A stretch of DNA of 64,000 nt, from the NCBI GenBank assembly GCA_963666565.1, contig OY762911.1:2022797-2086796 (forward strand). The letters run 5' to 3'. The notes below the pieces were generated by a model that saw only the letters and a program-made list of their open reading frames with translations, was not told the DNA's origin and made no database searches. The translations under genes were made by a program, and so were the position numbers. Source of the DNA: Thermoanaerobaculia bacterium (GTDB lineage Bacteria; Acidobacteriota; Thermoanaerobaculia; Multivoradales; Multivoraceae). Shown here piece by piece: positions 36,025-51,845 of this stretch (positions within the stretch are counted from its first letter, which is position 1; every line of letters begins with the position of its first letter).

Positions 36025-36154
36025 GGCGAGCTCCGGTAGAGGTTGCGGAAGGAAGGGGCGGTCGTGGCCGCTCGGCGGAGCTTACAGGCCGGAGTGACCG
36101 CTTGCGGCTCGGCGGTAGACTCGGCGAAGGCGCTTGCCGCCCGGAGACCGCTCC

Positions 36155-39100
36155 ATGACGACGCCCGAACAGGATCCGCGGATCCGCCTCGCCGAAGACG
36201 CCAGCCCGCTCCGGTTCGTGACGGCGGCGTCGCTCTTCGACGGGCACGACGCGGCGATCCACATCATGCGGCGCATGATCCAGGACCGCGGGGCCGAGGT
36301 GATCCACCTGGGCCACAACCGCGGCGTCGACGAGATCGTCCGCGCCGCGGTGCAGGAGGACGCCGACGCCATCGCGGTCAGTTCCTACCAGGGAGGCCAC
36401 ATCGAGTTCTTCCGCTACATGATCGACCGGCTGGCGGAGGAGGGCAGGGAAGACGTTCTCGTGTTCGGCGGCGGCGGCGGCACGATCACGCCGGAGGAGA
36501 TCGCGGAACTTGAGGCCTACGGCGTCGAGCGGATCTACCACCCCGACGACGGCCTGAAGATGGGTCTGCCGGCGATGATCGACGACGTCGTCGAGCGGGC
36601 GCACGCGAAGCGCCGGCCGGCGGCCGCCGAGCCGCGGTTCCGGGCGCGGATGGCGGCGGATCCCGGCGGCGACATCGAGCTCTCGGGGCTGTTGTCGGCG
36701 ATCGAGCGAGGCGCGCTGGACGAAGCCGAACTGCGCCGGCTACGCAAGGAGTGGCGCCTCGCCGGCGCCGGCGTGCCGGTCGTGGGCCTCACCGGCACCG
36801 GCGGCGCGGGCAAGAGCAGCGTCGCCGACGAACTGCTGAATCGCTTCCTCGATTCCATGCCGGAGGCCGCCTCTGAGATGCGGATCGCCCTGCTGGCGGT
36901 CGACCCGACCCGGCGGCGCACTGGCGGCGCGTTGCTCGGCGACCGCATCCGCATGAACAGCCTGCGCAGCGACCGCGCCTTCATGCGCTCGATGGCGACC
37001 CGCCGGCAGCACCGCGCCACCAGCGAGGTGCTGGGCGACGCGATCGCCCTGCTCAAGGCGTCCGGGTTCTCCATGGTCCTCGTGGAGACCGCCGGCATCG
37101 GCCAGAGCGACAGCGAGATCGTCGACCTGGTGGACCTCTCGATCTACGTGATGACCTCGGACTACGGCGCGGCCAGCCAGCTCGAGAAGATCGACATGCT
37201 CGACTTCGCCGACGTGATCGTGCTGAACAAGTTCGACCGGCGCGGCGGCCGGGACGCGCTGCGCGACATCCGCAAGCAGTGGCGTCGCAACCGCCTGGCC
37301 TTCCAGACCGCGGACGAGGACGTGCCGGTCTACCCGACGATCGCGAGCCAGTTCCAGGATCCCGGCGTCAACTGGATGTTCTGGAACGTCTGCCGGCTGC
37401 TGCAGGAGCGGCTCGACCTGGACGAGGAGGCGTGGACGCCGGAGATCGCACTGGACGAGCGCGAACCGAGCGCGGCGGCGCTGATCCCGGACAGCCGCAG
37501 CCGCTACCTCGCCGAGATCGCCGAGGCGAGCCGGGCCGCCGAGGCCGAGGCGGAGCGGCGCGCCGCCGCGGCGTCCAGGGCGCACGCCTGCTACCGGGCG
37601 CTGGCGGAACTCGACGACCCGGAGCTTCCCGAACCGCTCGCCGCGTACGCTGAGTCGGCGCTGGAGACGGCCCGCGGCGCCGGCGCCGAGTCGCCCGCTG
37701 GCGCAGGCGGGGAGACCGGCACGGGCGCGGCCGCCCGCGCCGCCACTCCCGACGTCGCCCGCGCCGCCGCGCCCTCCGGCACGGCCCCCGCCGCCGCTCT
37801 CGGCACGACCGCCGACGAGACCCTCTTGCGCCTGCGCCGGAGCTACCAGCAGGCGCTGGCGGAAGTGGGCGCCGGCGCGGCGGCACTCCTCCGCGCCTGG
37901 CCGGCCCGCGCCGCGGCCGCGCGTGCGGACCGGTACAGCTACCCGGTCCGCGGCCGCGAGGTCACCGGCGACAACTACGTCACGACGCTCAGCCACCTGC
38001 GGATGCCGAAGCTGGCCCTGCCCGAGTACTCGGACTGGGGCGACCTGCTGCGCTTCCTGCTGAAGCACAACCTGCCCGGCGCTTGGCCCTACACCGCCGG
38101 CGTTTACCCCTACCGTCGCCGCGGCGAGGAGCCGACGCGGATGTTCGCCGGCGAGGGGATCGCGGAGCGCACGAACCGACGGTTCCACTTCGTCTCGCGC
38201 GGCCAGCCCGCGAACCGCCTGTCCACCGCCTTCGACTCGGTCACCCTCTACGGCTCGGACCCCGGCGAGCGGCCCGACATCTGGGGCAAGGTCGGCAACT
38301 CGGGCGTCTCCATCGCCACGGTCGACGACATGAAGCGGCTTTACTCGGGCTTCGACCTGTGCGACCCCGCGACCTCCGTGTCGATGACGATCAACGGCCC
38401 GGCGCCGACCATCCTCGCCTTCTTCATGAACGCCGCCATCGACCAGCAGGTCGAACTGCACCTGCGCGAGACCGGCGGCTTGGAGCGGGCGCGGGCCGAG
38501 ATCGACCGGCTGTCAGGCGGCGACGTGCCGGTCTACCGCGGCGAACTGCCGGAGGAGAACGACGGCCTGGGACTGGCACTGCTTGGCATCTCGGGCGACC
38601 GGGTCGTCGAGCGCGAGGTCTACGAGCGCATCCGCGCCGACGCCCTGAGCCGGGTTCGGGGCACGGTGCAGGCCGACATCCTGAAGGAGGACCAAGCCCA
38701 GAACACATGCATCTTCTCGACCGAGTTCTCGTTGCGGACGATGGGCGACGTCCAGCAGTTCTTCATCGACGAGAACGTCCGCAACTACTACAGCGCCTCG
38801 GTCAGCGGCTACCACATCGCCGAAGCCGGCGCGAACCCGATCACGCAACTCGCGTTCACGCTCGCCAACGGCTTCACGATCGTCGAGTACTACCTCGCGC
38901 GCGGCATGGCGATCGACGACTTCGCTCCCAACCTGTCGTTCTTCTTCTCGAACGGGATGGACCCGGAGTACGCCGTGATCGGGCGGGTCGCCCGCCGCAT
39001 CTGGGCGCGCGCGATGCGCGAGCGCTACGGCGCCTCGGCGCGCAGCCAGATGCTCAAGTACCACATCCAGACCTCCGGCCGTTCGCTGCACGCGCAGGAG

Positions 39101-39760
39101 ATCCAGTTCAACGACATCCGCACCACGCTGCAGGCGCTCTACGGAATCCTCGACCGCTGCAACTCCCTGCACACGAACGCCTTCGACGAGGCGATCACGA
39201 CCCCGACCGAGCAGTCCGTCCGGCGCGCGCTGGCGATCCAGTTGATCATCAACCGCGAGTTCGGCCTCAACCGGAGCGAGAACCCCTGGCAGGGCTCGTT
39301 CGCCCTCGACCAGTTGACCGACGCCGTGGAGGAGGCCGTCTACCTGGAGTTCGAGCGCCTGTCCGAGCGGGGCGGCGTGCTGGCGGCGATGGACACGATG
39401 TACCAGCGCTCGAAGATCCAGGACGAGAGCATGGAGTACGAGGCGAAGAAGCACGACGGCAGCCTGCCGGTGGTCGGCGTCAACACCTTCCTCGCCGAGG
39501 GGCAGGAGCACGCCGAGACGGTCGAGGCGGAACTCATCCGCTCGACCGACGAGGAGAAGCGGCAGCAGATCGAGAGTCTGGCCTCCTTCCACCGCCGGCA
39601 CGCCGGCCACTCCGAGGCGTGTCTCGAACGCCTACAGGACGTCGCGCGGCGGCGGGGCAACGTCTTCGAGGAACTGATGGAGACGGTCAAGCACTGCTCG
39701 CTCGGCCAGATCTCGGACGCGCTCTACCGCGTCGGCGGCGAGTACCGGCGCAGCATGTAG
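36155..39760 (+). CDS. icmF: Fused isobutyryl-CoA mutase IcmF (B12-binding domain + MeaB-like GTPase + mutase catalytic domain)
   Basis: N-terminal B12-binding (DGHD), central G-protein (GLTGTGGAGKSS), C-terminal methylmalonyl-CoA-mutase-like barrel. Confidence 0.85.
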   Translation: MTTPEQDPRIRLAEDASPLRFVTAASLFDGHDAAIHIMRRMIQDRGAEVIHLGHNRGVDEIVRAAVQEDADAIAVSSYQGGHIEFFRYMIDRLAEEGREDVLVFGGGGGTITPEEIAELEAYGVERIYHPDDGLKMGLPAMIDDVVERAHAKRRPAAAEPRFRARMAADPGGDIELSGLLSAIERGALDEAELRRLRKEWRLAGAGVPVVGLTGTGGAGKSSVADELLNRFLDSMPEAASEMRIALLAVDPTRRRTGGALLGDRIRMNSLRSDRAFMRSMATRRQHRATSEVLGDAIALLKASGFSMVLVETAGIGQSDSEIVDLVDLSIYVMTSDYGAASQLEKIDMLDFADVIVLNKFDRRGGRDALRDIRKQWRRNRLAFQTADEDVPVYPTIASQFQDPGVNWMFWNVCRLLQERLDLDEEAWTPEIALDEREPSAAALIPDSRSRYLAEIAEASRAAEAEAERRAAAASRAHACYRALAELDDPELPEPLAAYAESALETARGAGAESPAGAGGETGTGAAARAATPDVARAAAPSGTAPAAALGTTADETLLRLRRSYQQALAEVGAGAAALLRAWPARAAAARADRYSYPVRGREVTGDNYVTTLSHLRMPKLALPEYSDWGDLLRFLLKHNLPGAWPYTAGVYPYRRRGEEPTRMFAGEGIAERTNRRFHFVSRGQPANRLSTAFDSVTLYGSDPGERPDIWGKVGNSGVSIATVDDMKRLYSGFDLCDPATSVSMTINGPAPTILAFFMNAAIDQQVELHLRETGGLERARAEIDRLSGGDVPVYRGELPEENDGLGLALLGISGDRVVEREVYERIRADALSRVRGTVQADILKEDQAQNTCIFSTEFSLRTMGDVQQFFIDENVRNYYSASVSGYHIAEAGANPITQLAFTLANGFTIVEYYLARGMAIDDFAPNLSFFFSNGMDPEYAVIGRVARRIWARAMRERYGASARSQMLKYHIQTSGRSLHAQEIQFNDIRTTLQALYGILDRCNSLHTNAFDEAITTPTEQSVRRALAIQLIINREFGLNRSENPWQGSFALDQLTDAVEEAVYLEFERLSERGGVLAAMDTMYQRSKIQDESMEYEAKKHDGSLPVVGVNTFLAEGQEHAETVEAELIRSTDEEKRQQIESLASFHRRHAGHSEACLERLQDVARRRGNVFEELMETVKHCSLGQISDALYRVGGEYRRSM

Positions 39761-39890: not shown

Positions 39891-40877
39891 TCATCGCCTG
39901 GCCCGAAGCGGCCTGAAGAACAACTCCAGTTCGTTGACCTTCTCCTTGCGGGGCAACCTGAGTGTTCCACTGTCCAGGATACTCCCGGTGACCTCGATCG
40001 CGTAGACGCCGAACACATCGTCGTCTTCGACGTCGATGTCAACCACACTGATCAAGAGCGTGTCGCCTTCGTAGACCTTCACGAGCGTGCCGGACCGACG
40101 GAAGTTGTACCGGCCTGACTTCCTGGATCGCTCGGGTGTTCGCCCCCGGACAAGCCGCTCGACGCAGGCCAGTTCTAGCCTGTACCGTCCTGAGGCCGCG
40201 TTCAACATGGATTGCTGAATCGGTATCTCGTACCTTCGAGCCCTCTCGGCATCGGACAGCGGTGGGCTTGGCTTGCGCTTGCTGGCCTCATCCTTCGCTT
40301 CGAGCTCGGTGAGTTCCGTTTCGCGTAACGACACTTCGGCGGAGCTGAGTTGCAGCCTGCCTTCCGAGTACGCCTGCGTTTCGGACTTCAGTTGGTTCAT
40401 CCGCGTGCGCTCGCTCTCGGTTAGTGGCAGCTTCGGCTTTGACAGCTCGTCCTTCTGGACGAGTGCCGACAGCTCGGCCTGGAGGCGCTCCACCCTTGCG
40501 GCGATCTCCGCCAGACCGGTGCCGAGGTCGTCGACCAGCCCTTCCATCCTCAGGTCCTGGCGTTCCACGCGCACCTGGACGTCGGCCCCACTCAGGAAGT
40601 CCATCGCGCTTTGGCCTGAAACGCTGAGAGCGCCAACGCCCAGGCCATGGGCGCGGCTGGTTGGCAGGAGGTCGGAAGCCGACTCGCAAGAAGGCGGATC
40701 GAGCGGCACCGGCTCTTGTTGCAGAGACCAGGCTGGACCGCCAGCGAGAACTCCAAGACTGACCGCGATGAGGAACCGCGCCGGATCGACCGACCGCCAA
40801 GCTGCGACTGCCGGAGCGCCCCGGTGGCGGCTCCGCACCCGCTGTCGCGCACTCTCTTTCCCCATTCTGGCGGTCAC
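39891..40877 (-). CDS. Hypothetical coiled-coil protein with PL(S/T)(D/E)xExxR repeats and a conserved C-terminal VYEGD...FRP domain (paralog of 43199-44629)
   Basis: Lower-GC region; clear similarity to the downstream paralog in the coiled-coil, repeat and C-terminal roughly 65 aa regions. Confidence 0.5.
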   Translation of the reverse strand: MTARMGKESARQRVRSRHRGAPAVAAWRSVDPARFLIAVSLGVLAGGPAWSLQQEPVPLDPPSCESASDLLPTSRAHGLGVGALSVSGQSAMDFLSGADVQVRVERQDLRMEGLVDDLGTGLAEIAARVERLQAELSALVQKDELSKPKLPLTESERTRMNQLKSETQAYSEGRLQLSSAEVSLRETELTELEAKDEASKRKPSPPLSDAERARRYEIPIQQSMLNAASGRYRLELACVERLVRGRTPERSRKSGRYNFRRSGTLVKVYEGDTLLISVVDIDVEDDDVFGVYAIEVTGSILDSGTLRLPRKEKVNELELFFRPLRARR

Positions 40878-41035
40878 GACTCTTCTGTCTCCTCGGCCTT
40901 GAGCGGCGCCGAGATGCGGAGAACAGCGGCGCCGGTGTCGTCCGTTGTCTCAACCTCGCATCTGGTGGGCGTTGCATCGGCTGAGGCAAGGCTGATTGTC
41001 GATCCCATGGAGAGATCACTCTAACCTGAGAACGG

Positions 41036-41067
41036 GCTTGTAGTAGCGAGCAAGAACGTGTAGCTGG
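41036..41067 (-). promoter_or_regulatory. Conserved upstream motif CTTGTAGT-N14-ACGTGTAGC (copy 1)
   Basis: About 80 percent identical to 49099-49130; both lie about 150-200 bp upstream of minus-strand gene starts in the accessory cluster; coordinates approximate. Confidence 0.35.
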
Positions 41068-41158
41068 CCGATCGGCCTGGGTCGCTCAAGGGTCTCGTCC
41101 GGGATCGTGACCTTCCCCCGGCGAAGCTAGGGGAACGCGTGCGCGGGGAACGGGTCGC

Positions 41159-41503
41159 CTACTGGCACGGAAACGCCGTGATGTCCGACTTCGTGGTGGC
41201 GGTCGCGCCCTGCGGGTTGCCGTGCGTCCAGCGGCTGCCGTCGGGTCCCGTAATCCACAGGTTGAAGTCCAGGGTCGTCACCGGCGCCACGAACGCCCAG
41301 CGGTGGCCGTTGACTTGGCAACCGTCGAGCACCTTGACGAGAACCTCGGGGTTGTTGCGGCCGAAGAACCACAGAATGCCGGCCTCGCTGGACCAGGCTT
41401 CGGCCTTGACCGGGCCCGACTCGCCCTCTTGCGTGACGTAGCACATGCTGACCTCGAAGCCGCCGTCGAAGCGGAGGGCCACGGTCGTGGGCGTGCAGGT
41501 GCC
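41159..41503 (-). repeat. Dispersed about 340 bp repeat copy 1 (encodes the shared four-Cys domain)
   Basis: About 80 percent nucleotide identity to 44893-45231 and 48054-48392. Confidence 0.7.
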
Positions 41504-43060
41504 GACGGGATCCTCGGCCGGTCCGGAATCCGGGTCCGGGTCGGGGTCCGGATCCGGATCGGGCGAAGGCGTTCGCGGGCGTCTGTCGGCGAAACCGTCC
41601 TTGATCCAGTCGAACACCTTCGTGTTGGCCACGGTGCCGCGCACGTTCTCCGACGTGCGGCCGACCGCGTAGATCATCACGTCTTCGCCGGCGTGGGTCT
41701 CCAGGAACAGCGGGACCGTCGCCTCCTGCCGATATGCCGTGTGGCTGGTGCTCGTGGGAACGGCGCCGCCGCGGCCCGGCGTCCTGTCGCTGTTCGGATT
41801 GACCCGCGAACCGCTCCGGTGGCCCGGCCCGTTGGCGTAGCCCAGGATGGTGTAGGGAATGCCCCCCGAGTCGCCGCTCTCCGAGATCGTGCCGCCGCTG
41901 TCTATGTCGTGAACCGTTCCCAGGATGCCGTTGTGCGGCTGGTTGCGGAACGACGCGGGCACCGAGCGGGGGCTGTAGCGCAGGTCGCCGAGCGGCCGCA
42001 TCGGGTAGCCGGCGATCGTGAAGACGTGGCTGTGGTCCGCGGTCGCGAGGATCAGCGTCCTGTTGAGATTGACGCTCCGCTGCGCGGCGGCGATCGCTCG
42101 ATCGAACATCCGGGTGTCGGTGAAGGCGCGATAGGCGTTCCCCTCGTGGTGCGCGTGGTCGATCCGTCCCCCTTCGACCATCAGGAAGTACGGCTTTCCC
42201 GTGGCGGCGAGAATCTGGATCGCCTTCCTCGTCATCTCCTCCAGGCTCGGCTCGCCGCTGTCCCGGTCCGTTTCGTACTCCAGATGACTCGACGCGAACA
42301 GGCCGATCGCGCGGCCGGAACCGCCCAGCGAGTTGAGTCCCTGCCGGTTCCAGACGTAGCGGTAGCCCCGCTCTCGCAGTTCGTTTCGCAGATCGCGGCC
42401 GTCCGATCGGCTCCCTGGAAGTCCCTCGTCGTCCGATGCGGAAGTGGGAAGGAAGTGCCGTCGGCCGCCTCCGAAGACGACGTGGAGGCCCTGTCCGAGG
42501 CGGTCGTTGTATCCGCCGCCGCCCGGCGTCATCTGCCTGGCGATCTCGTTCTCCAGGTTGCGGTCGTTGACGTGCCCGAAAACGGCCGCCGGCGTCGCGT
42601 GGGTGACCCGCGTCGTCGTCACGATGCCCACTGCGTAGCCCATCGATATGGCCAGTTCGCCGATGTTGGTCAGCCTCGCGCTGTTGCCGTTGCCGTTGAA
42701 GTCCGCGTACTCGGTGGCCGGGCCGTAGCCGATCACGCCCGTGTTCGTGTTGACGCCGGTCATCATCGCCGACATCGTGGCGGCGCTGTCGGGGGTGATG
42801 TAGTCGGCCGACGCCGTGCGCGAGATGGCGGTGTAGGGCATGCGGTCGAGCGCCAGTTGCCCGTCGACGCCGACCGTCGCGATGCGGGTGGACGTGACGG
42901 TCGACACCCCCATGCCGTCGCCGACGAACAGGATGACGTTGTTCCTCTGCGCGGCCGCGGGCAGTGCCGCCGCCAGCAGGAGTGCGATGGTTGAGAGAGT
43001 GCTCAACGACGGGACGAGATTTCCGCGCACGCTTCCGATCTGCACGACACGACTCTTCAT
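41159..43060 (-). CDS. Alkaline phosphatase (PhoA family) fused via a (PD)n linker to a C-terminal roughly 114 aa four-cysteine domain
   Basis: Signal peptide; PhoA motifs (VGDGMG, TDSAATMSA, DHAHHEGN, ADHSH); linker PSPDPDPDPDPDPD; C-terminal domain shared with two neighbouring genes. Confidence 0.8.
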   Translation of the reverse strand: MKSRVVQIGSVRGNLVPSLSTLSTIALLLAAALPAAAQRNNVILFVGDGMGVSTVTSTRIATVGVDGQLALDRMPYTAISRTASADYITPDSAATMSAMMTGVNTNTGVIGYGPATEYADFNGNGNSARLTNIGELAISMGYAVGIVTTTRVTHATPAAVFGHVNDRNLENEIARQMTPGGGGYNDRLGQGLHVVFGGGRRHFLPTSASDDEGLPGSRSDGRDLRNELRERGYRYVWNRQGLNSLGGSGRAIGLFASSHLEYETDRDSGEPSLEEMTRKAIQILAATGKPYFLMVEGGRIDHAHHEGNAYRAFTDTRMFDRAIAAAQRSVNLNRTLILATADHSHVFTIAGYPMRPLGDLRYSPRSVPASFRNQPHNGILGTVHDIDSGGTISESGDSGGIPYTILGYANGPGHRSGSRVNPNSDRTPGRGGAVPTSTSHTAYRQEATVPLFLETHAGEDVMIYAVGRTSENVRGTVANTKVFDWIKDGFADRRPRTPSPDPDPDPDPDPDSGPAEDPVGTCTPTTVALRFDGGFEVSMCYVTQEGESGPVKAEAWSSEAGILWFFGRNNPEVLVKVLDGCQVNGHRWAFVAPVTTLDFNLWITGPDGSRWTHGNPQGATATTKSDITAFPCQ

Positions 43061-43198
43061 GGCCCAGACCCTCCTTCGTTGGTGCCCGGCCCCGGCAAGG
43101 GGCTTCATCGTCGGGATCGCGCCGCTCTTCAGCCGACCCGATGCCGACTCTTCCAACGATGGTAGTGGACTTGGCCTCAATCGGAGACTCGGCGGCCC

Positions 43199-44629
43199 CT
43201 ACCGAAGAGCGCCGGGCCGGAACTTCAACTCCACGTACTCCACGTCCGTCATGCGGGCGCGGAGAACTCCCTCTTCAAGCGTCCGACGATCGAGGACGAC
43301 CGTCGTCCTGCCGTAGAGGTCGTCGTACAAGACGTCCGCGTCCCAGACCTCGACGTCCAGTTCGTCTCCCTCGTAGACGGTGAGGATCTCGCGGTCGCCG
43401 AAGTTCACCACGGGACTCGACGTCTCCACCTTGCGCGTCCGAGCCGAGAGCAGGGCATCGAGCCGAGCCTGCTCCTCCTGCGCTTCGGCCCTCTCCTGCT
43501 GCAGGGTGCCGAGGTTCGCGGTCAGAGCCGTGAGGCGGACGGACTCCGACTCGGTCAGCGGGTCACCGGGAACGACTTCGCTTTCCGCCTTCCGCTCGGT
43601 CAGGTACTCAAGTTCGCGGCACATCGCGCACCGTGGGCAGGGATCCCGTTCGTCGAACGGGCTGCACGCCGCGCAGGCGGTCTCCGTGTAGACGGCGCAC
43701 GAGTGCGACACTTCGGCATCGAGTTCCCGCAGCCGTGCCAACTGGGTGTCGCTGAGAGGATCGCCGACAGCGACCTTGCTGGCCGTGTCCCTGGCCTCGA
43801 GTACTTCCAGTTCCGCCACGACCGCAGCTTGTTCCTCGGCCAACTCCGCCACCCTGCCGCCCAGCCAGTCCATAGCTCCCTGGATCTCGGGAACGTGCCG
43901 CCGGACCTGCACGAACGGATCGGGGTCCGAACTGGAGTCCTGGCGGTGCTTCCTGACGCGCATGACGCCGACGGAAAGGATGTACGGCGCCCGGCGATCC
44001 GGGCTGGCCACGCCCGGGCCACACGCCTTCTCTCCCTCGGTCGCGGGGTGCAGAGTCGAAGCGTGAACCCATCCGCGAGTGATGGGATCGTCGCCCAGAC
44101 GGGCCGAGGACGGTGCCGGATTCCGCGGCCCATGGTGTGCGGCATACAGCCAGCAGTTCCGCCTTTCGCGGACGTACACGAGTTGATCGTTGGAGGCTTG
44201 GAAGTCCATGGCGGCCGCGGCATGAGCCGGCGCTCGCCGGAAAGGCGCGCCCTCGCTCAGCATGCCGATGCGTAGCCATTCGTGGCGTTGTTTCAACTCC
44301 GCGGACAAGCCGCTGGTGTCCAGCACGCTTCGGCAGCCGGGCAACTCGTCCCGAGCGAACCGCAGATGGACACGCTCGCCGAGGAACTCAAGGACGCCCG
44401 AGGCTTCGCTCTCGCCCCGGGAAAGTGCTTCGGGATCGGACGACGCTTCGATCCGGAAACGTGGCGTCCGGCCTCGTCTCGTTTCCTCGCCAGCGAAGAA
44501 AAAGGAGCAGCCGAACTGCGGAAACGATGCCGAGCCGTTGCCGATCCGGAACTGCTCGTGGTAGCCCGTCAGCGAGCCGCTGGCCGGGTCGAAGGCGATC
44601 ACGGTGTCTCCGTCGTTACCCGGCACCAC
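43199..44629 (-). CDS. Hypothetical protein: N-terminal unknown domain, CxxC/CPRC zinc-ribbon-like motif, coiled coil, PL(S/T)(D/E) repeats, C-terminal VYEGD...FRP domain
   Basis: Paralog of 39891-40877; GTG start per the ORF track; no signal peptide evident. Confidence 0.5.
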   Translation of the reverse strand: MVPGNDGDTVIAFDPASGSLTGYHEQFRIGNGSASFPQFGCSFFFAGEETRRGRTPRFRIEASSDPEALSRGESEASGVLEFLGERVHLRFARDELPGCRSVLDTSGLSAELKQRHEWLRIGMLSEGAPFRRAPAHAAAAMDFQASNDQLVYVRERRNCWLYAAHHGPRNPAPSSARLGDDPITRGWVHASTLHPATEGEKACGPGVASPDRRAPYILSVGVMRVRKHRQDSSSDPDPFVQVRRHVPEIQGAMDWLGGRVAELAEEQAAVVAELEVLEARDTASKVAVGDPLSDTQLARLRELDAEVSHSCAVYTETACAACSPFDERDPCPRCAMCRELEYLTERKAESEVVPGDPLTESESVRLTALTANLGTLQQERAEAQEEQARLDALLSARTRKVETSSPVVNFGDREILTVYEGDELDVEVWDADVLYDDLYGRTTVVLDRRTLEEGVLRARMTDVEYVELKFRPGALR

Positions 44630-44766
44630 CTGCGCCCACGAGGGCGCCGCGAACGGCAGTGCCGAAGCGAAGAGGGCAAGGAACCCGCGCCAGACTGAAC
44701 GGCCGTACTCGGAGCCAGTGAACGTGCTTGACGGCCGCGGTCGGTCGTGGTGGTTGTCCGGGAGTA

Positions 44767-47340
44767 TCAGGGCACTCTCTCCCCTCGTTCCGACTGCGCC
44801 GAGATGCGAAGAACCGCGGCGCCGGTGTTGCCCGTCACATCCACTTTCCCGTCATCATCGCCGTCCCCGTCGTCGTCATCATCCTCGTTCGCGCACTGGA
44901 ACGCGTTCGTGTCGCTCCTGGTCGAGGCCGTCTGGCCTTGCCGATTGCCGTGCGTCCACCGGGTGCCGTCCGGGCCCGTTATCAAGAGATTGAACTCCAG
45001 GGTCGTGACCGGCGCCACGAACGCCCAGCGGTGTCCGTTGTGCTTGCAGCCGTCGAGCACCTTGACCAGAACTTCCGCGTTGCCCCGGTCGAAGAACCAC
45101 AGGATGCCGGACTGGCCGGATGCCCAGACGCCGGACCTGGCCTGGCCCCCGTCTCCGTCGGGCGTGCGGTAGCACATGCTGACCTTGTAGCCGCCGTCGA
45201 ACTGAAGCGCGGTCGTCGTCGGCCTGCAGCCCATGGTCGGCGGAGCTGGGCGGTCACCTTCCCGAACCACGCGGATGTCGTGACCGGAAGGCGCCAGCAC
45301 CAACTCGTAGCGGTTGCCCCGCCAGGTGAACGGCCTGTCGGGGAGGAGCGCACCAGGCCTCGTCCTGTTTCCGTCCACGTCTTCGGTGAAGTCGCACTCG
45401 TTCAGCCAGCCGTTCCGGTCGAGGTCGAGGCAGACGAAGTCCTTGTCGTCCTCGGGCAGCGCGTCAGATGGGGAGTCGAACCGTCCGTCGCCGTTCCCAT
45501 CGACAGCCAGCGCCAGCAGCCGCCCTCCCGACGGCAGCTCGACTTCGCCCCTCCAGACGCTGGACGGGCCGTACACGAGACCGTTCGACAAGTCGCCGCG
45601 CTGGGCGGACATCGTAATGGCGTAGGGCAGGACCAGCCCCGACGCATAGGGCACTTCCAGAACCGCCCCGGTTGTCCCCACAGCCCACGGACGCTCCGTG
45701 TTCCACGCCGTGAGCAGCGGCGGTCCGTCGTCGGTGAGATTTCGGTTCCTGTTCCGATCAACCCAAACGCGGATGAACCGGTTCTGGAAGTACGACGAGT
45801 AGTACCCACTCGCCGCGAACCGTTCGACATCGCAAAGCTGAGGCAGGAGCACCGTCGGGCAGGACTCGGGTCTCCTATGGCTGTCGACGAGGATCTCGAA
45901 CCGGCCTCCCGCGTCTCCAAGCTCAAGAAACTGGTAGGACGCCGAGTCTCCCCGAACTGCCGGATAGACCACGTCGGATGGCCGACTTGCATGAACCTGT
46001 ACCCGCTGAGTGATGTGGAGGCCGGTGTAGCCGCTCAGCCTGCCGTTTCGGCTCACGAAGGCGAGTCCGCGGCCGTCCGTGTTGTCGTCCATCCGGTCCC
46101 CGATGCCGTCGCCGTCCGTGTCCCGCTGCTCCCGCGGGTTCAGAGGGAAGGCGTCCGCGGCGTTACTCACGCCGTCGCCGTCGGCGTCCCGGTCCAGTGC
46201 GTCGGCGATGCCGTCACCGTCCGTATCGCGCCAGTCTCGGTGGTCCAGAGGCAGAGCGTCGATGAAGTCCGGTGCTCCGTCGCCGTCGTCGTCAAGGTCG
46301 GTCCGATTCGGCGTGCCGTCGCCGTCAGTGTCGTTCGCGGTCCCTGGGCGCGCCAGCGCGGCGCCGGACGACAGCCACTCGAAGATCTCTCTCGGGGGCG
46401 TGTCGCCAGACGAGCAGTGACCGCCGGGCGCATCCAGATCCGCGCGGGTTTCCAGGCCCAGCCAGTCTGAGTAGTACCTCGCCATCGACTCGGCGTCCTG
46501 ATGCAGGAAGTCTCCCGTCGTGGCTTCCACGAACACGCGAAAGCGCTCCCTCACGAACTGGGCGGCGAATGGGGTCCACTGAAACGAGGGCCTCCACGGT
46601 GCGTGGTGGAACGGCGGAGCGACGGCGTAGGTGTCGTGCGAGGCGTCGCCGTCGAAATCCAGCCAGAAGCACCCGCAATGCGCGTGAAAGCCACCGCCGT
46701 AGCTGCCGCCGTAGAACTCCATGAACTGCGCCAGGAAGCAAGTGCCCTGGGAGCCGCCGGCGAAGACGATTCGGTCGTGGTCGAGAGCAAGCCGCGACTT
46801 CAGGTTGTTCTGGAGCAGTTCATGGATCAGGCGCGCGTCTTCGCCTTGCCAGAACCGGGTTCCTCCCGCGCCGACTGCTTCGGGGAGCAACGTGCGTTCA
46901 CCGAATGAGATCTCCTCCGGCACCGAGTTGGGAGACGCCGGCACGATCAGCGCCAGCCCAAGATCCAGAGCCGTATCGACGTGCTGGTACCTGGGCTGCC
47001 GCAGCTCCTCGGCCGTTCCCCTGTTGTTCCCGTGGAAGAAAACGACCGCTCCGCGAGGCGTCGTCGGATCCCAGCCGCTCCTCACCCAGTACCGGTAGAG
47101 GAGAGTCCGGCCGGTGGAATCGGTGAACGAGTCATCGTGCCATACCGTGGACTGCCCTTGGACGGCGCCGGAAGCGGCGAGGAGCGCAACTGTCAGCGCC
47201 CAACGTCGTCGTCCGAGTCTCCGAGTCAGCGCCTGCCGGGAGAGTCGCATCAGTTCTGCACAGTCCGCCAGGGTCGTCCCCATCGCTTGTTCTCTCACCT
47301 TTTGCCGCCCTTCGATGGATGCACGGGATTCAACTCGCAC
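44767..47340 (-). CDS. Secreted multidomain protein: alpha/beta-hydrolase (GGSQG serine esterase), thrombospondin type-3 Ca-binding repeats, unknown middle region, shared four-Cys domain, acidic tail
   Basis: Signal peptide; VVFFHGNN...FAGGSQGTCF; DTDGDGxxD TSP3 repeats x4-5; C-terminal domain about 90 percent identical to that of 47388-48953. Confidence 0.65.
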   Translation of the reverse strand: MRVESRASIEGRQKVREQAMGTTLADCAELMRLSRQALTRRLGRRRWALTVALLAASGAVQGQSTVWHDDSFTDSTGRTLLYRYWVRSGWDPTTPRGAVVFFHGNNRGTAEELRQPRYQHVDTALDLGLALIVPASPNSVPEEISFGERTLLPEAVGAGGTRFWQGEDARLIHELLQNNLKSRLALDHDRIVFAGGSQGTCFLAQFMEFYGGSYGGGFHAHCGCFWLDFDGDASHDTYAVAPPFHHAPWRPSFQWTPFAAQFVRERFRVFVEATTGDFLHQDAESMARYYSDWLGLETRADLDAPGGHCSSGDTPPREIFEWLSSGAALARPGTANDTDGDGTPNRTDLDDDGDGAPDFIDALPLDHRDWRDTDGDGIADALDRDADGDGVSNAADAFPLNPREQRDTDGDGIGDRMDDNTDGRGLAFVSRNGRLSGYTGLHITQRVQVHASRPSDVVYPAVRGDSASYQFLELGDAGGRFEILVDSHRRPESCPTVLLPQLCDVERFAASGYYSSYFQNRFIRVWVDRNRNRNLTDDGPPLLTAWNTERPWAVGTTGAVLEVPYASGLVLPYAITMSAQRGDLSNGLVYGPSSVWRGEVELPSGGRLLALAVDGNGDGRFDSPSDALPEDDKDFVCLDLDRNGWLNECDFTEDVDGNRTRPGALLPDRPFTWRGNRYELVLAPSGHDIRVVREGDRPAPPTMGCRPTTTALQFDGGYKVSMCYRTPDGDGGQARSGVWASGQSGILWFFDRGNAEVLVKVLDGCKHNGHRWAFVAPVTTLEFNLLITGPDGTRWTHGNRQGQTASTRSDTNAFQCANEDDDDDGDGDDDGKVDVTGNTGAAVLRISAQSERGERVP
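44893..45231 (-). repeat. Dispersed about 340 bp repeat copy 2
   Basis: About 95 percent nucleotide identity to 48054-48392. Confidence 0.75.
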
Positions 47341-47387
47341 AGAGCCTCTGTCGGGTCGTCGTCATGCGGCGGCTCCCTCGCGGCCCT

Positions 47388-48953
47388 CTACCTCCTGGTC
47401 TCTACCCAGGTACCGGCCGTAACCGTTCTCCCTTCGATCCGGCAGGTGCTCGCGTCGCATGTGTACCGATAGGGACGCCTCTCGACGTAGCCGTTCCGAG
47501 AACAGCGCACGTTCGTTTTGCCACCGGAGTTGCTGAGGGAACACCTCGACAACCCGCCGTTGAGGCTCCACGAATCCGAGGGCAACGTCGTAATGACGTC
47601 ACCGACGTTGTACCTGGTTCCCGACCCGCCGCCGCCGCTGACCGTCACGCGGACGCCGCTGGAACAGTTGTTGCCGGTGTTCGATTCGCCCGACACGGAA
47701 TCCACGCAGGCGCCGTAGTAGTACGTGCCCGCGCTGGACGGCGCCGTCAGGCTGATCGACTCGGCACTGGAGCTCGAGGCGGAGAGGACACCGACCGAAT
47801 CCGTGCCGACCTGCGTGTCGGAGGTGCCGATGCTGGAGTTCGACGAGCGGTAGTAGCGCAGCGTCGTGGCGGCGGAGCGACCGTCGCCCTGGTTGCGCAC
47901 CGTGGCGCGGAGCGTGAAGCGGTCGCCCGCGCTGAGGCTGCTGTCGCTGACCGACGGGCTCGACACCACGAGGTCGGGCGCCGACGTTGGTTCGTCATCG
48001 TCCCCGTCATCATCACTGTCGTCCCCGTCATTGTCGTCATCACCATCGGTCGCGCAAGCGAACGCTCTGTTGTCGCTCTTGGTCGAAGCCGTCTGGCCTT
48101 GCCGGTTGCTGTGCGTCCACCGCTTGCCGTCCGGTCCCGTGATCCAGAGGTTGAACTCCAGGGTCGTGACCGGCGCCACGAACGCCCAGCGGTGTCCGTT
48201 GTGTGTGCAACCGTCGAGCACTTTGACCAGAACTTCCGCGTTGCCCCGGTCGAAGAACCACAGGATGCCGGACTGGCCGGATGCCCAGACGCCGGACTTC
48301 GCCTGGCCCACGTCCCCAGCGGGCGTGCGGTAGCACATGCTGACGTCGTAGCCGCCGTCGAAGCGGAGCGCCGTTGTCGTGGGCCTGCAGCCTGCGGTTG
48401 GCGGGGGGTCGGGATCGGGATCCGGCGGCTGACTTTCTTCGGACGTTGCGCGCACTTCGCATCCGGTGGGCGTTGCTCCAGAGACCGTCCCGGTCATGTG
48501 GAAGGTCCTGGTCTGGTTGGCCTCCATCCTCCCGAGGAGCTGATTGCCTATCTGGCGCCGCCCCGGCTCGATATAGCCCCGTACCCTGACGTTCCTGACG
48601 GACCGTTGGGCCGTCACGCTCCCGCCGATGGTCGCGTTCCAGGTGCTGCCGGCGGTCTGGTCAGCCCTGCAGGTCGTGACGCGGCCGGTCAAGGCCGGGC
48701 CGGACGCTGCTGCATGGACGGATTCGGTGTCACCGGCGGCGGCATTGACGAACACCGTGCTCGGTGCGGCGTGCAGAGGCACTTCCCAGGCAACAAGTTC
48801 CCGGTCCTGCTGAGCGGCCGATGGCGCCGAAACGGCCATGGTCAACGCCATCAGCGTCAGCAGGACGGCGGGTCGAGGAACGCGAACGCCTCCGGCTCCG
48901 TTCCCTCCGCGGGTCTGGCGCTTCTGGCTCGGGCCGATCATTGTGTTGTTCAT
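47388..48953 (-). CDS. Secreted multidomain protein: unknown N-domain, PDPDPD linker, shared four-Cys domain, poly-acidic linker, CARDB-like domain, Cys-containing C-terminal domain
   Basis: Signal peptide; CARDB-like region LVVSSPSVSDSSLSAGDRFTLRATVRNQGDG; shared domain GCRPTTTALRFDGGYDVSMCY...AFAC. Confidence 0.6.
   Translation of the reverse strand: MNNTMIGPSQKRQTRGGNGAGGVRVPRPAVLLTLMALTMAVSAPSAAQQDRELVAWEVPLHAAPSTVFVNAAAGDTESVHAAASGPALTGRVTTCRADQTAGSTWNATIGGSVTAQRSVRNVRVRGYIEPGRRQIGNQLLGRMEANQTRTFHMTGTVSGATPTGCEVRATSEESQPPDPDPDPPPTAGCRPTTTALRFDGGYDVSMCYRTPAGDVGQAKSGVWASGQSGILWFFDRGNAEVLVKVLDGCTHNGHRWAFVAPVTTLEFNLWITGPDGKRWTHSNRQGQTASTKSDNRAFACATDGDDDNDGDDSDDDGDDDEPTSAPDLVVSSPSVSDSSLSAGDRFTLRATVRNQGDGRSAATTLRYYRSSNSSIGTSDTQVGTDSVGVLSASSSSAESISLTAPSSAGTYYYGACVDSVSGESNTGNNCSSGVRVTVSGGGGSGTRYNVGDVITTLPSDSWSLNGGLSRCSLSNSGGKTNVRCSRNGYVERRPYRYTCDASTCRIEGRTVTAGTWVETRR
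48054..48392 (-). repeat. Dispersed about 340 bp repeat copy 3
   Basis: See copies 1 and 2. Confidence 0.75.
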
Positions 48954-49098
48954 GGTGACCGTGTCTCCTTGGTCCGGTTGGCCGCCAGGTCTCCTGCCCT
49001 TCCGCCGTCAACACCCGGCGATTTGCCGCGACGGACGCGCGCTTCGCGTTTACCGAAGACGCGCTCTTCATCATGCTCGTCAGCCTACGACGGACGCG

Positions 49099-49130
49099 GC
49101 TTGTAGTGCCGAGGAGAAACGTGTAGCCGG
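49099..49130 (-). promoter_or_regulatory. Conserved upstream motif CTTGTAGT-N14-ACGTGTAGC (copy 2)
   Basis: Upstream of the first gene of the minus-strand cluster (start 48953); see copy 1. Confidence 0.35.
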
Positions 49131-49151
49131 TCGCGGTGGCGCGGCAGCCGG

Positions 49152-51845
49152 TCAGGAGTCGCCGGGGATCAGGCCCATGTCCCAGGCCCGCCGGACGGCC
49201 TCCGCCCGATTGCGGGTGCCGAGCTTGGCGAAGATGCTCCGCAGGTTGTACCTCACGCCATGCGTCGTCAGACCCAGTTCGGCGGCGATCTCCTTGTCGC
49301 GGCGACCCGGCAACCGGTGCAGCACTTCAAGTTCGCGCTCGCTGAGCGACGGCGCCGAACCATCGTCCGCGTCGCACATCGCCAGGAGCGAACGGGCGGC
49401 TGGCCGGTGGGAGGCGTCCGCGCCGAGCTCGAGGTACATCCGCAACGCGTCCGCGCAGGTTGCCTGGTCCCGCACCAGGGGCCAGGCGTAGGGCGACTCG
49501 ACGAACAGCCTTAGGTACTCCGTCAGATGCCGCAGGCTCGCCTGGGTGTCGCCGGCCTGCTGTTCCAGCGAGACGGACAGCGCCAGGGCGCGCATCTCGA
49601 CGGTGCGGAGGCCCAGCTCGGCCGCAACCGAGCGTAGCCGGCGCAGCAACGAGCGCCCTTCCTCCCACCGTCGGCCCGCGATCGACAATCGGGCGCGAGC
49701 TTCCGAAACGGCCTCCATTTCCCTCCAGCTCTGAGCCGTCAGATCCACGCAGTCCTCAGGCTCCTCCGGCAACGCCTCCCGCCGCCAGGCGCGCTCGGCT
49801 TCCGTCGTGCGGCCGGCGATCGCCAGCACCGATATCCGGAGCGCGACGATCAGTCTCAGGAAGGCGGTCAATCCGGCCCTGCGTGAACGAAGCACCAGCT
49901 TGTCTGCCACGGCGAGAGCCTCTTCGACCTGTCCGGACCCGAGTCTGGCGCCGATCAACACGTTGCTGGCCGTTGCGAAGTACGAGAAGGGCACGCCGTG
50001 GCGCGTCAACACGCTCAGTACGCCGGGCGGGTTGGCGGCTGCCGAAGCCGGGTTGCATTCCAGGGCGATTTCGTGCCGCACGAGATCGCAGCTCGTGGTC
50101 GCCGTGGGATCGAGCATGAAGCACTTCCTGGCAATCCGCCGTGCTCTGCGGCAGTGTGCCCGGGCGTCCCGTGGCCGGCCCCTCACGAAGTCGATCTGGC
50201 CATGCAGGATTCCTCCGTACAGCGCGATGTAGTCGGTACCGGTGGACTCGAGCGCCGCGGAGAGCGTGTCGAGAGCGTCGGCGAACTCTCCCTTCAGAAA
50301 GTGGAGGATGCACAGCCCGTACTCGAACCCGCCGCGCTTGGCCGGGGCCAGATCCGCATCCGCCGTCAGCCGGGCGATGTCGCGAAGCAGGGCCTCCGAC
50401 GAGTCCGACCCGACGGGAGATATCCCGTACAGGGCCAGGCAGAAGCGAGCGGTGAGATGCTCCAGGCGGTAGCGGAAGTCGTCCTCGTCGTCGCTGGCGG
50501 GGACAGGACGGGGACACGTCCGGTAGAGATCCCGAGCTTGGTCGCCACGTCCGGTAAGCGCCAGCGTGACGCATCTGAGGAGCTTGAGTCGCGGCGATTC
50601 GGCGACGACAGCCTCGCTCAACAGGCGGTTCGCTTGCTGCAACTCCGGGACGCCGTTGCGCATCCACAAGCGTACCCCGCCCGCCTGTTCGGCAATCCGA
50701 CCGGCGAGGAACGGATCGCGCCCCTCGATCGCGTGGCGCATGGCCGCTATCGTCTCGCGGCGTTTCGCCAGGGCGGCGGCGATGCGCCGATGGATGGCGG
50801 CGAAGCGTTCCGGGTCTTCGCGAAGCCGCCTGGCGGCGCAGTGCTCTCGCACCAGCGGATGCAGCCGCCAGCGCCGGGTTTCGCCGTCGCTCAGCGGCTC
50901 AAGCAGCCCGGTCAGCGCGGCCATCGACTCGAAGCGGCGCATCGAGTCGTTTCGTTGCAGGACTTCGTCCAACAGCGCCGCGTCGGTCCAGTCGAGCAGG
51001 GACATGTCCAGAACGAAGTCCCGGTCGCCGCGCCCGAGAGGCGCGAACAGGCGGGACTCGATCCAGTTTCCGAGGAAGCCATGCCCACTGTCGCGGTCGT
51101 CGTGCGCTTCGTGTTGCATACCGTTGCGGGCAATGCGCAGTGCGACCGGCCATCCGGCTGAACGGTCGATCTCTCTCGCCAGGGCTCGGCGGGAAAGGCG
51201 GAGACCGAAGAACCTGGCCACCTCCGCTCGGGAGAACCTCAGGTCTTCGGTTTCCACGGCCTCCGCGTGGCCCGCCAGCAGGGGACTGGCCACATCGAGG
51301 CCGTCCGGGATCTCCCGGCCCGCCAAAGCCAGGTGCAGATTGGAGGGGCCGCGTTGCAGGAGCAACGTCAGGAGCGGGACGGAGGCGGGATTCAGACGCT
51401 CCAGCTCGTCGAACGCAATGACGAAGGGTCTTCCGAGGGACTCGATTCCGTGCAGAACGGTGCCGATCCGGCTCGCCGGTCCAGCGCGCGTTTCCCTCAC
51501 GGGCGGCACGTCGCCCAGGTTCAACCCGGCCTCGGCGCAGGCGAAGGCGATGTAAACGTCGAGTACGCCGGGCTCGTCGTTCTCGTCCAGCGAAATCCAG
51601 GCCGTGGCGACCCCGTCCCGGCGGACTCGGCGGCAGCACTCCGCCATCAGGGTCGTCTTCCCGAAACCGCCGGAGGCCCTCAGCACCGAGAGCTTGCGGC
51701 GCGTGGGCAGCGCCCGCTTCTCGAGTTCCGGCCGGCTGAGGTAGCCGGCCACCCTGTCCGGGATCGCGACCTTCCGCCGCAGCAGCCAAGGGAACGCGCG
51801 CGCGGGGAAGGACTCCGCGGGCATTCCTCGCGACGCTCCGGTCAT
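49152..51845 (-). CDS. Large ATP-binding LuxR-family transcriptional regulator (LAL / MalT-like)
   Basis: N-terminal P-loop (GGFGKTTL), long helical/TPR-like middle, C-terminal LuxR HTH (LSERELEVLHRLPGRRDKEIAAELGLTTHGVRYNLRSIFAKLG). Confidence 0.8.
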   Translation of the reverse strand: MTGASRGMPAESFPARAFPWLLRRKVAIPDRVAGYLSRPELEKRALPTRRKLSVLRASGGFGKTTLMAECCRRVRRDGVATAWISLDENDEPGVLDVYIAFACAEAGLNLGDVPPVRETRAGPASRIGTVLHGIESLGRPFVIAFDELERLNPASVPLLTLLLQRGPSNLHLALAGREIPDGLDVASPLLAGHAEAVETEDLRFSRAEVARFFGLRLSRRALAREIDRSAGWPVALRIARNGMQHEAHDDRDSGHGFLGNWIESRLFAPLGRGDRDFVLDMSLLDWTDAALLDEVLQRNDSMRRFESMAALTGLLEPLSDGETRRWRLHPLVREHCAARRLREDPERFAAIHRRIAAALAKRRETIAAMRHAIEGRDPFLAGRIAEQAGGVRLWMRNGVPELQQANRLLSEAVVAESPRLKLLRCVTLALTGRGDQARDLYRTCPRPVPASDDEDDFRYRLEHLTARFCLALYGISPVGSDSSEALLRDIARLTADADLAPAKRGGFEYGLCILHFLKGEFADALDTLSAALESTGTDYIALYGGILHGQIDFVRGRPRDARAHCRRARRIARKCFMLDPTATTSCDLVRHEIALECNPASAAANPPGVLSVLTRHGVPFSYFATASNVLIGARLGSGQVEEALAVADKLVLRSRRAGLTAFLRLIVALRISVLAIAGRTTEAERAWRREALPEEPEDCVDLTAQSWREMEAVSEARARLSIAGRRWEEGRSLLRRLRSVAAELGLRTVEMRALALSVSLEQQAGDTQASLRHLTEYLRLFVESPYAWPLVRDQATCADALRMYLELGADASHRPAARSLLAMCDADDGSAPSLSERELEVLHRLPGRRDKEIAAELGLTTHGVRYNLRSIFAKLGTRNRAEAVRRAWDMGLIPGDS

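Follow-up and report, generated by a model that had tools for sequence, protein, structure and literature searches.

The locus described here raises the question of what two related coiled-coil proteins do among genes for secreted enzymes, and whether they serve as dedicated partners of those enzymes. It lies on contig OY762911.1 of a Thermoanaerobaculia bacterium, within a stretch of 64,000 nucleotides (G+C ~70%) that is referred to as the window. The two proteins, A (39891..40877, minus strand, an open reading frame of 328 amino acids) and B (43199..44629, minus strand, an open reading frame of 476 amino acids), each lie downstream of a gene whose product carries a domain with four cysteines, the four-Cys domain. 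We assign both proteins to the C2 superfamily and find that each is predicted to consist of one C2 β-sandwich interrupted by a helical arm, an architecture that may allow calcium-dependent docking on membranes. The family to which they belong, C2 with a coiled-coil insertion, is abbreviated C2cc, and the related loci with which the window was compared are numbered L001–L090. All features of A and B given below are on the minus strand.

A and B are paralogs, as an earlier note on this DNA had proposed from the sequence: pairwise alignment by BLASTP gives 68 bits, an E-value of 5e-17 and 30% identity over 261 columns (A residues 79–323 and B residues 218–472). The motif PL[ST][DE]x[EQ]xxR occurs five times in the six-frame translation of the 64 kb, and four of the matches fall in these two proteins, two copies in each (A P151 and P206; B P291 and P357), which bears out the repeated motif reported in that note. 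Orthologs of A include P0005 (85% identical) and P0008 (46%), and those of B include P0002 (84%) and P0003 (49%). When A, B and their close relatives are aligned, two conserved blocks stand out, one on either side of the coiled coil, and the N-terminal block, which lies ahead of the coiled coil, has the pattern LSVGxxxV...DxxSxPDxxVRVxRxD.

Predicted structures bring these two blocks together in one domain. The AlphaFold2 model of A, computed from an alignment of eight sequences, has a mean predicted local distance difference test score (pLDDT) of 81.5, with 210 residues at or above 90 and a core above 90. It runs through strands at residues 77–86 and 98–106, four helices and then six strands within residues 244–323, and the model of B has the same order of strands and helices. 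Foldseek matches the A model to the C2 domain of cPLA2 with a probability of 1.00. On these models, A and B are each a single predicted C2 sandwich that is interrupted behind strand 2 by 135 residues in A and 151 in B (64–275 across the family), and so departs from the description of C2 as a contiguous domain of ~130 residues. The first strand of A aligns to strand 2 of synaptotagmin 1 (Syt1), and an additional C-terminal strand is present; the topology is probably type II, because C2 domains of that type are matched best in structure. As the strand ahead of the insertion descends from calcium loop 1, the arm is predicted, from strand order, to emerge from the far end of the sandwich, away from the calcium loops. 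The earlier note had recognized a C2-like or calcium-binding β-sandwich in a C-terminal unit of ~65 residues; the fold, the profile links and the conserved calcium ligands lend that assignment good support, but the unit is not a domain of its own, being merely the last two-thirds of a C2 domain whose strands 1 and 2 precede the coiled coil.

In A, strands 1–2 and calcium loop 1 (D93, D99) occupy residues 74–108 (40554..40658, placed by model and alignment). The helical arm follows at residues 109–243 (40149..40553), with helices assigned by DSSP on the model at 109–146, 154–171, 179–200 and 209–243, and strands 3–8 with calcium loop 3 (D280, D282, D287) complete the protein at residues 244–328 (39894..40148). 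The corresponding parts of B are strands 1–2 and calcium loop 1 (D231, D237) at residues 213–246 (43892..43993), the arm at residues 247–397 (43439..43891; helices 247–284, 294–311, 332–350 and 360–397 in the model), and strands 3–8 with calcium loop 3 (D430, D432, D437) at residues 398–476 (43202..43438).

Sequence profiles also connect the family to C2 domains. Word-indexed homolog searches returned just four to five proteins each, and the family was revealed by an exhaustive profile search, in which HMMER with the family profile, run over 1.84 billion representatives, found 142 clusters at E ≤ 1e-3, of which 34 were at E ≤ 1e-30. Its weaker matches include the eukaryotic multi-C2 proteins P0116, P0122 and P0101, the best eukaryotic matches lying at E ~1e-5. 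The profile also matches unsplit bacterial proteins in which a C2 domain is fused to an α/β-hydrolase (P0088 and P0104), as well as P0136, in which C2 accompanies tetratricopeptide repeats (TPR); P0088 scores 44.7 bits against Pfam C2, above the cut-off of 22. Over 41 divergent members of the family, C2 is the sole recurrent Pfam family, matched in 11 and in each case below threshold. Fold, transitive profile links and the set of calcium ligands together place A and B in the C2 superfamily. The family has no model in Pfam, NCBIfam or PADLOC. It diverges to less than 20% identity and is found on bacterial contigs of 3–7 Mb with a GC content of 0.56–0.70. A pattern scan of GTDB genomes found a relative in one representative genome, a metagenome-assembled genome of the Vicinamibacteria; a scan of JGI metagenomes with B-type patterns found no relative, and the plasmid and phage collections searched contained no match to the family.

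The calcium site is conserved across these divergent proteins. Residues D93, D99, D280, D282 and D287 of A are invariant in alignment A1, which comprises A, B and close relatives, and they align to the ligands D172, D178, D230, D232 and D238 of Syt1. Counted over the 41 members, D93 is aspartate in 38, glutamate in two and glycine in one; D99 is aspartate in 29, glutamate in eight, asparagine in three and glycine in one; D280 is aspartate in 25 and glutamate in 16; D282 is aspartate in all 41; and D287 is aspartate in 39 and glutamate in two. Each of the five canonical ligand positions is thus acidic in 37–41 members. The loops around them carry hydrophobic residues: position 95 is F, W or L in 27 of 41 members and position 284 is F in 19, the usual pattern of loop 1 is D-[FWL]-[FWL]-S-x-P-D, and F is frequent in loop 3. 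At the corresponding loop positions of synaptotagmin, hydrophobic side chains penetrate the lipid bilayer. As judged from the alignments, the predicted ligand set is intact and is accompanied by membrane-type hydrophobic residues in loops 1 and 3.

The arm is composed of helix–corner–helix units, 69 of which give the consensus E-L-x2-L-x2-[KR]-K-x2-S-E-x2-P-G-P-P-L-T-x2-E-x2-R-L-x2-L. One to four units are present per protein; in the most divergent members the motif is absent and the arm is a plain hairpin. Placed by this consensus, the corners of A are residues 142–163 (40389..40454; KDELSKPKLPLTESERTRMNQL; motif match at 40427) and residues 195–218 (40224..40295; KDEASKRKPSPPLSDAERARRYEI; motif match at 40262), while those of B are residues 279–303 (43721..43795; motif match at 43759) and residues 345–369 (43523..43597; RKAESEVVPGDPLTESESVRLTAL; motif match at 43561). 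In the model of A the pLDDT of 10-residue blocks is 91–97 over residues 111–250. The arm has no family match in Pfam or the PDB, where a profile search returned generic coiled coils; a split C2 domain with a repeat-built arm had no counterpart among the PDB entries, Pfam or NCBIfam models searched, and searches of the literature turned up no account of a split C2 domain in bacteria.

Structural comparison of the models also leads to export machinery. For the A model, Foldseek gave two matches at E ≤ 0.001, both to MacA (3fpp_B at 9e-5 and 5nik_D at 1e-4), with EmrA next, and the MacA and EmrA families lead the matches of the B model too. A and B might on this evidence take part in a trans-envelope export machine, the arm tips docking on an outer-membrane channel and the C2 domain resting on the inner membrane; at L005, moreover, the C2cc gene lies 38 bp upstream of the genes for the ATPase and permease of an ABC transporter, behind which comes an outer-membrane receptor-like gene. 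We consider such a role very unlikely. The β domain is C2 rather than lipoyl, β-barrel and membrane-proximal domains are lacking, no Pfam match to HlyD or lipoyl families was obtained, and a transporter adjoins the C2cc gene in one of nine contexts, with none in the window. The template modelling (TM) scores to MacA and EmrA are 0.15–0.17, and the likeness is therefore one of shared layout, not homology.

The corner motif also resembles LTXXQ, the hallmark by which A and B could be read as chaperones with holdase activity in the periplasm, akin to Spy/CpxP (LTXXQ) or Skp, with the PLTxxE corners standing for LTXXQ. One family member, P0011, has a weak Pfam LTXXQ match (E 0.04), CpxP appears at E 0.57 in the PDB profile search, and the β domain of Skp is likewise split by a helical hairpin. 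Over the 41 members, however, LTXXQ does not recur, and OmpH is matched in two at E 0.13 or weaker, so that we give the holdase explanation next to no credence. A relation to the LTXXQ proteins Spy and CpxP was likewise rejected, hhalign giving a probability of 0.6% for the arm profile against CpxP.

B carries two parts that A lacks, in line with the extra N-terminal domain and cysteine motif that had been noticed in the larger paralog. The N-terminal domain, a region of ~212 amino acids (residues 1–212, 43994..44629), occurs only in the B orthologs and as a separate secreted protein of 249 amino acids (L003 14126–14875) that is 55% identical to it (E 2e-57); searches of the PDB and Pfam gave it no match, and the B model falls below a pLDDT of 50 over residues 101–212. 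The second part is a cluster of six cysteines (C311, C319, C322, C331, C334 and C337), arranged as C-x7-C-x2-C-x8-C-x2-C-x2-C at residues 311–337 (43619..43699), between helices 2 and 3 of the arm. All six are invariant in seven orthologs, and roughly every second one of the closer relatives in the family carries the cluster. It contains paired CxxC knuckles like those of a zinc ribbon, and in an exported protein three disulfides could equally well be formed as a zinc site.

Export is predicted for most of the family. A hydrophobic N-terminal segment is found in 33 of the 41 members, adjoined by a lipobox in ~13, and most relatives accordingly have a putative signal peptide or lipobox that would mark them as exported or lipid-anchored. 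In A, the N-terminal region (residues 1–51, 40725..40877) contains the hydrophobic segment FLIAVSLGVLAGGPAWS, with a Kyte–Doolittle maximum over 12 residues of 2.43 at residue 35; it is a probable Sec signal peptide, its cleavage site placed by eye. The NCBI model of A (P0006, 237 amino acids) begins at M92 (40604) and thereby loses the signal peptide along with strand 1 of C2, and the public model of B (P0001) begins at residue 10, with 44603–44629 cut off. For B, the first canonical start is the GTG at 44629. Translation upstream of it, in frame, yields a signal-peptide-like stretch, RSVWRGFLALFASALPFAAPSWAQ (44630..44701, minus strand), followed by VVPG, and the frame stays open to 44851, running into the upstream gene at its 3' end. 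The orthologs do have usable starts, P0003 with a normal signal peptide and L006 with GTGs in frame upstream. The anomaly at the start of B could reflect a non-canonical start, a sequencing error or the loss of export in this strain.

In eukaryotes, C2 is the standard module by which proteins are targeted to membranes in response to calcium. Zhang and Aravind (2012) describe C2 domains as not known outside eukaryotes (PMC3495828), and Nair and Crane (2026) as typically not found in prokaryotes (PMC12922734). In keeping with these descriptions, A and B might be host-directed, eukaryote-like effectors of a sponge symbiont that are released and bind host membranes, their C2 domain having been acquired from a eukaryote. 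Eukaryote-like repeat proteins at related loci fit such a role, among them a leucine-rich repeat protein of 1903 amino acids that accompanies an astacin at L002 and an ankyrin-repeat protein, read from the translation, at L005. Against it, the members with a lipobox would be tethered to the bacterium itself, the family is deep and resides on bacterial contigs, the eukaryotic matches are so weak as to make a recent transfer unlikely, and the unsplit relatives are fused to hydrolases of bacterial type. We regard the host-effector explanation as unlikely.

We propose instead that A and B combine calcium-dependent membrane docking with an arm that projects to a partner, a model in which, taken as a whole, our confidence is evenly balanced. 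In the calcium-rich extracytoplasmic space, the tip of the C2 domain would dock on an anionic lipid surface, which may be that of the cell's own envelope membranes or of a foreign membrane. The arm, with outer helices of 38 and 35 residues, would project ~5–6 nm, and both conserved corners would come to lie next to each other at its tip and bind a partner there. A and B would thereby act as calcium-dependent, membrane-anchored adaptors or tethers, to which B would contribute its extra N-terminal domain, the part that is encoded separately in L003. More weakly, the gene neighbourhoods suggest that the clients in this lineage may be the secreted hydrolases encoded in that same variable island: secreted hydrolases adjoin the C2cc gene in five of nine contexts, namely the window, L002 (an astacin), L003 and L007 (reprolysin-like proteins) and L006 (PhoA). 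A broader proposal, that A and B represent a prokaryotic radiation of calcium-ligating C2 domains, used as extracytoplasmic calcium-switched docks whose arms tether hydrolases, other membranes or host membranes, much as E-Syt and Lgd do in eukaryotes, and employed by sponge-associated Acidobacteriota at the host interface, is put forward tentatively, and we find it rather doubtful. Were it true, membrane targeting by calcium and C2 domains would not be a eukaryotic invention.

Several observations weigh against the docking model. The C2 fold rests on predicted models whose alignments comprised just seven to eight sequences, and the Pfam C2 threshold is missed by both proteins, B reaching 14.7 bits against 22 (residues 417–448) and A giving no match. 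The upstream frame of B has no ATG, GTG or TTG from which the signal peptide could be included. The corner motif amounts to a helix C-cap, a proline turn and an N-cap box, and its conservation may be purely structural; moreover, it was helix lengths and not coordinates that served to place the corners at the distal tip. The resemblance of the layout to MacA and EmrA is tempered by the low TM scores given above, long helices being known to inflate Foldseek matches of this kind. Finally, no neighbouring gene is conserved across the whole family.

Turning to the neighbourhood, A and B sit in a row of genes that all read in one direction on the minus strand and that runs from a regulator through a CARDB protein, a hydrolase-like protein, B and PhoA to A. 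At its head is a MalT/LuxR-type STAND regulator of 897 amino acids (49152..51845; Pfam GerE, TPR_MalT and AAA_16), whose equivalents occupy the same position in L006 (92% identical) and L015 (69%); because this position is conserved in both, the regulator probably controls the secreted-enzyme genes of the island. The CARDB-domain protein (47388..48953, minus strand; recognized by Pfam and by domain copies) has an internal four-Cys domain at 48039–48428, the α/β-hydrolase-like protein (44767..47340, minus strand; TSP_3 E 6e-5) has thrombospondin type 3 (TSP3) repeats and a four-Cys domain at 44881–45255, and the alkaline phosphatase PhoA (41159..43180, minus strand; Pfam Alk_phosphatase E 1e-101) ends in a four-Cys domain at 41162–41515. 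The gaps between genes are 137 bp from the hydrolase-like gene to B, 18 bp from B to PhoA and 281 bp from PhoA to A. A is convergent with a gene on the plus strand (36134–39760) for a fusion protein of 1208 amino acids that joins B12-binding, MeaB-type GTPase and methylmalonyl-CoA-mutase-like parts in an IcmF-like arrangement. This fusion gene is also a neighbour in L006, L007, L008, L013 and L014.

Each of the two proteins does therefore follow a four-Cys-domain gene, as the earlier note had said, A behind PhoA and B behind the hydrolase-like gene. The latter had been called an esterase; the gene is indeed present upstream of B, but its identity as an esterase is weakly backed, the catalytic matches reaching E 0.059 for feruloyl esterase and E 0.0055 for PHA depolymerase. 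Its TSP3 calcium-binding repeats are clear, and an acidic D/G tail follows the four-Cys domain. A Rosetta-stone link between this protein and the hydrolase fused to C2 in P0088 was considered and rejected, as the two hydrolases show no similarity.

The row from A to the regulator (39891–51845) has a G+C content of 0.67, and A alone one of 0.637, against 0.70 and 0.73 in the flanks. A and B, like the genes for the hydrolase-like and CARDB proteins, are variably present in the orthologous loci L006 and L013–L016. The lower G+C content and the varying gene content point to a variable secretome island. A scan of the island for promoters and terminators gave nothing usable.

PhoA, the hydrolase-like protein and the CARDB protein share the four-Cys domain, ~112 amino acids long, at 67–77% identity. 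It had no match in Pfam or NCBIfam, and a search of the PDB gave designed propellers and a carboxypeptidase at chance level. Relatives in JGI metagenomes number 307, in which the domain lies nearly always at the extreme C-terminus, with 0–5 residues behind it, and is often doubled; the genes that carry it often form arrays of three to four consecutive members. Its carriers include alkaline phosphatase, matrixin- and reprolysin-like proteases, penicillin amidase, a Vgb-lyase-like propeller and PKD proteins. It looks like a putative C-terminal module for sorting, anchoring or binding, and a domain so common on secreted enzymes is as yet undescribed.

A direct partnership with this domain would explain the gene order of the window: A and B could be chaperones, adaptors or anchors specific to the adjoining four-Cys enzymes, with the arm or the N-terminal domain of B binding the four-Cys domain. 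Gene order speaks for such a partnership at several loci, beginning with the window itself, where B and PhoA are so closely spaced. L006, with a B ortholog (84% identical), has the row MalT/LuxR regulator, CARDB–four-Cys protein, B and PhoA–four-Cys, and L007 and L008, with an A ortholog (84%), have a reprolysin-like protein and stand-alone four-Cys proteins ahead of A. At L003, an A-type gene (46%) is followed by a gene for a reprolysin-like protein with two four-Cys domains and by that for the separate protein related to the N-terminal domain of B, with a gap of 52 bp and then a 7-bp overlap. This arrangement gives a gene-fusion (Rosetta-stone) hint that the B N-terminal domain and C2cc cooperate.

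Across genomes, however, the association does not hold. Four of nine C2cc contexts contain a four-Cys domain; all four are close relatives, and three of them represent the same inherited island. At L001, L002, L005, L009 and L010 the C2cc gene is present and no four-Cys domain was found within 10 kb. Conversely, in 80 loci of the widespread four-Cys domain (766 kb) no C2cc gene was found. Four of these 80 loci are orthologous islands in which PhoA is 88–91% identical to that of the window, and even among islands with PhoA a B-like gene is absent from L014, L015 and L016, while L006, L013 and L014 have no A in the interval from PhoA to the mutase gene. The idea of a cognate chaperone, adaptor or anchor, which the earlier note had drawn from adjacency, thus keeps its local support, but conserved co-occurrence of the two elements was not found, and we judge a partnership specific to the four-Cys domain improbable. 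A and B are therefore better seen as variable accessory genes of the secretome island, and not as obligate partners of four-Cys enzymes.

Further members of the family show varied arrangements. Two C2cc genes lie close together both in the window, as A and B, and at L009, where an intact second paralog (11566–12306) follows P0049 downstream at a distance of 850 bp, the two being separated by a VapBC-like pair. At L002, a C-terminal C2 remnant (2372–2806) is joined to transposase-like sequence, as judged by eye.

If A and B do bind calcium and lipid, they would offer a tractable bacterial system for the origins of C2 domains, and a new type of envelope or host-interface adaptor in the secretome of uncultivated Acidobacteriota. 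Among known systems, the cyanobacterial nitric oxide synthase syNOS, source of the one bacterial C2 domain studied structurally, has a C2 domain that is cytoplasmic, intramolecular and regulatory, unlike those of A and B, and that lacks the usual calcium-coordinating aspartates (PMC12922734), whereas A and B keep all five acidic ligands. The calcium-binding type II C2 domains of cPLA2 and Itch/Nedd4/Smurf2, together with those of E-Syt, Munc13 (C2B) and perforin, share with A and B the five acidic ligands in loops 1 and 3 and the hydrophobic loop residues, and the perforin C2 domain resembles them also in acting outside the cytoplasm. A and B differ in being bacterial, apparently exported, no part of a eukaryotic signalling or trafficking protein and, in their models, split behind strand 2. 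The unsplit bacterial fusions P0088 and P0104 and the TPR–C2 protein P0136 have the calcium ligands in common with A and B, as well as the signature G-x-L-x-L ... V-x-x-L-x-L-x-F at the C-terminus; they lack the helical arm, and the C2 domain of P0088 and P0104 is fused directly to an enzyme, whereas A and B are encoded beside one. In Lgd/CC2D1, a cytosolic regulator of ESCRT-III, DM14 helical hairpins precede a phospholipid-binding C2 domain instead of being inserted within it, and the likeness to A and B is one of logic, hairpins combined with C2, not of hairpin sequence. The periplasmic adaptor proteins of tripartite pumps dock the tip of their hairpin on TolC. MacA and EmrA, of this kind, resemble the C2cc family in layout, with a β-sandwich interrupted by a long antiparallel α-hairpin of variable length in proteins that are often lipoproteins; there the sandwich is a lipoyl domain, and in A and B it is a C2 domain.

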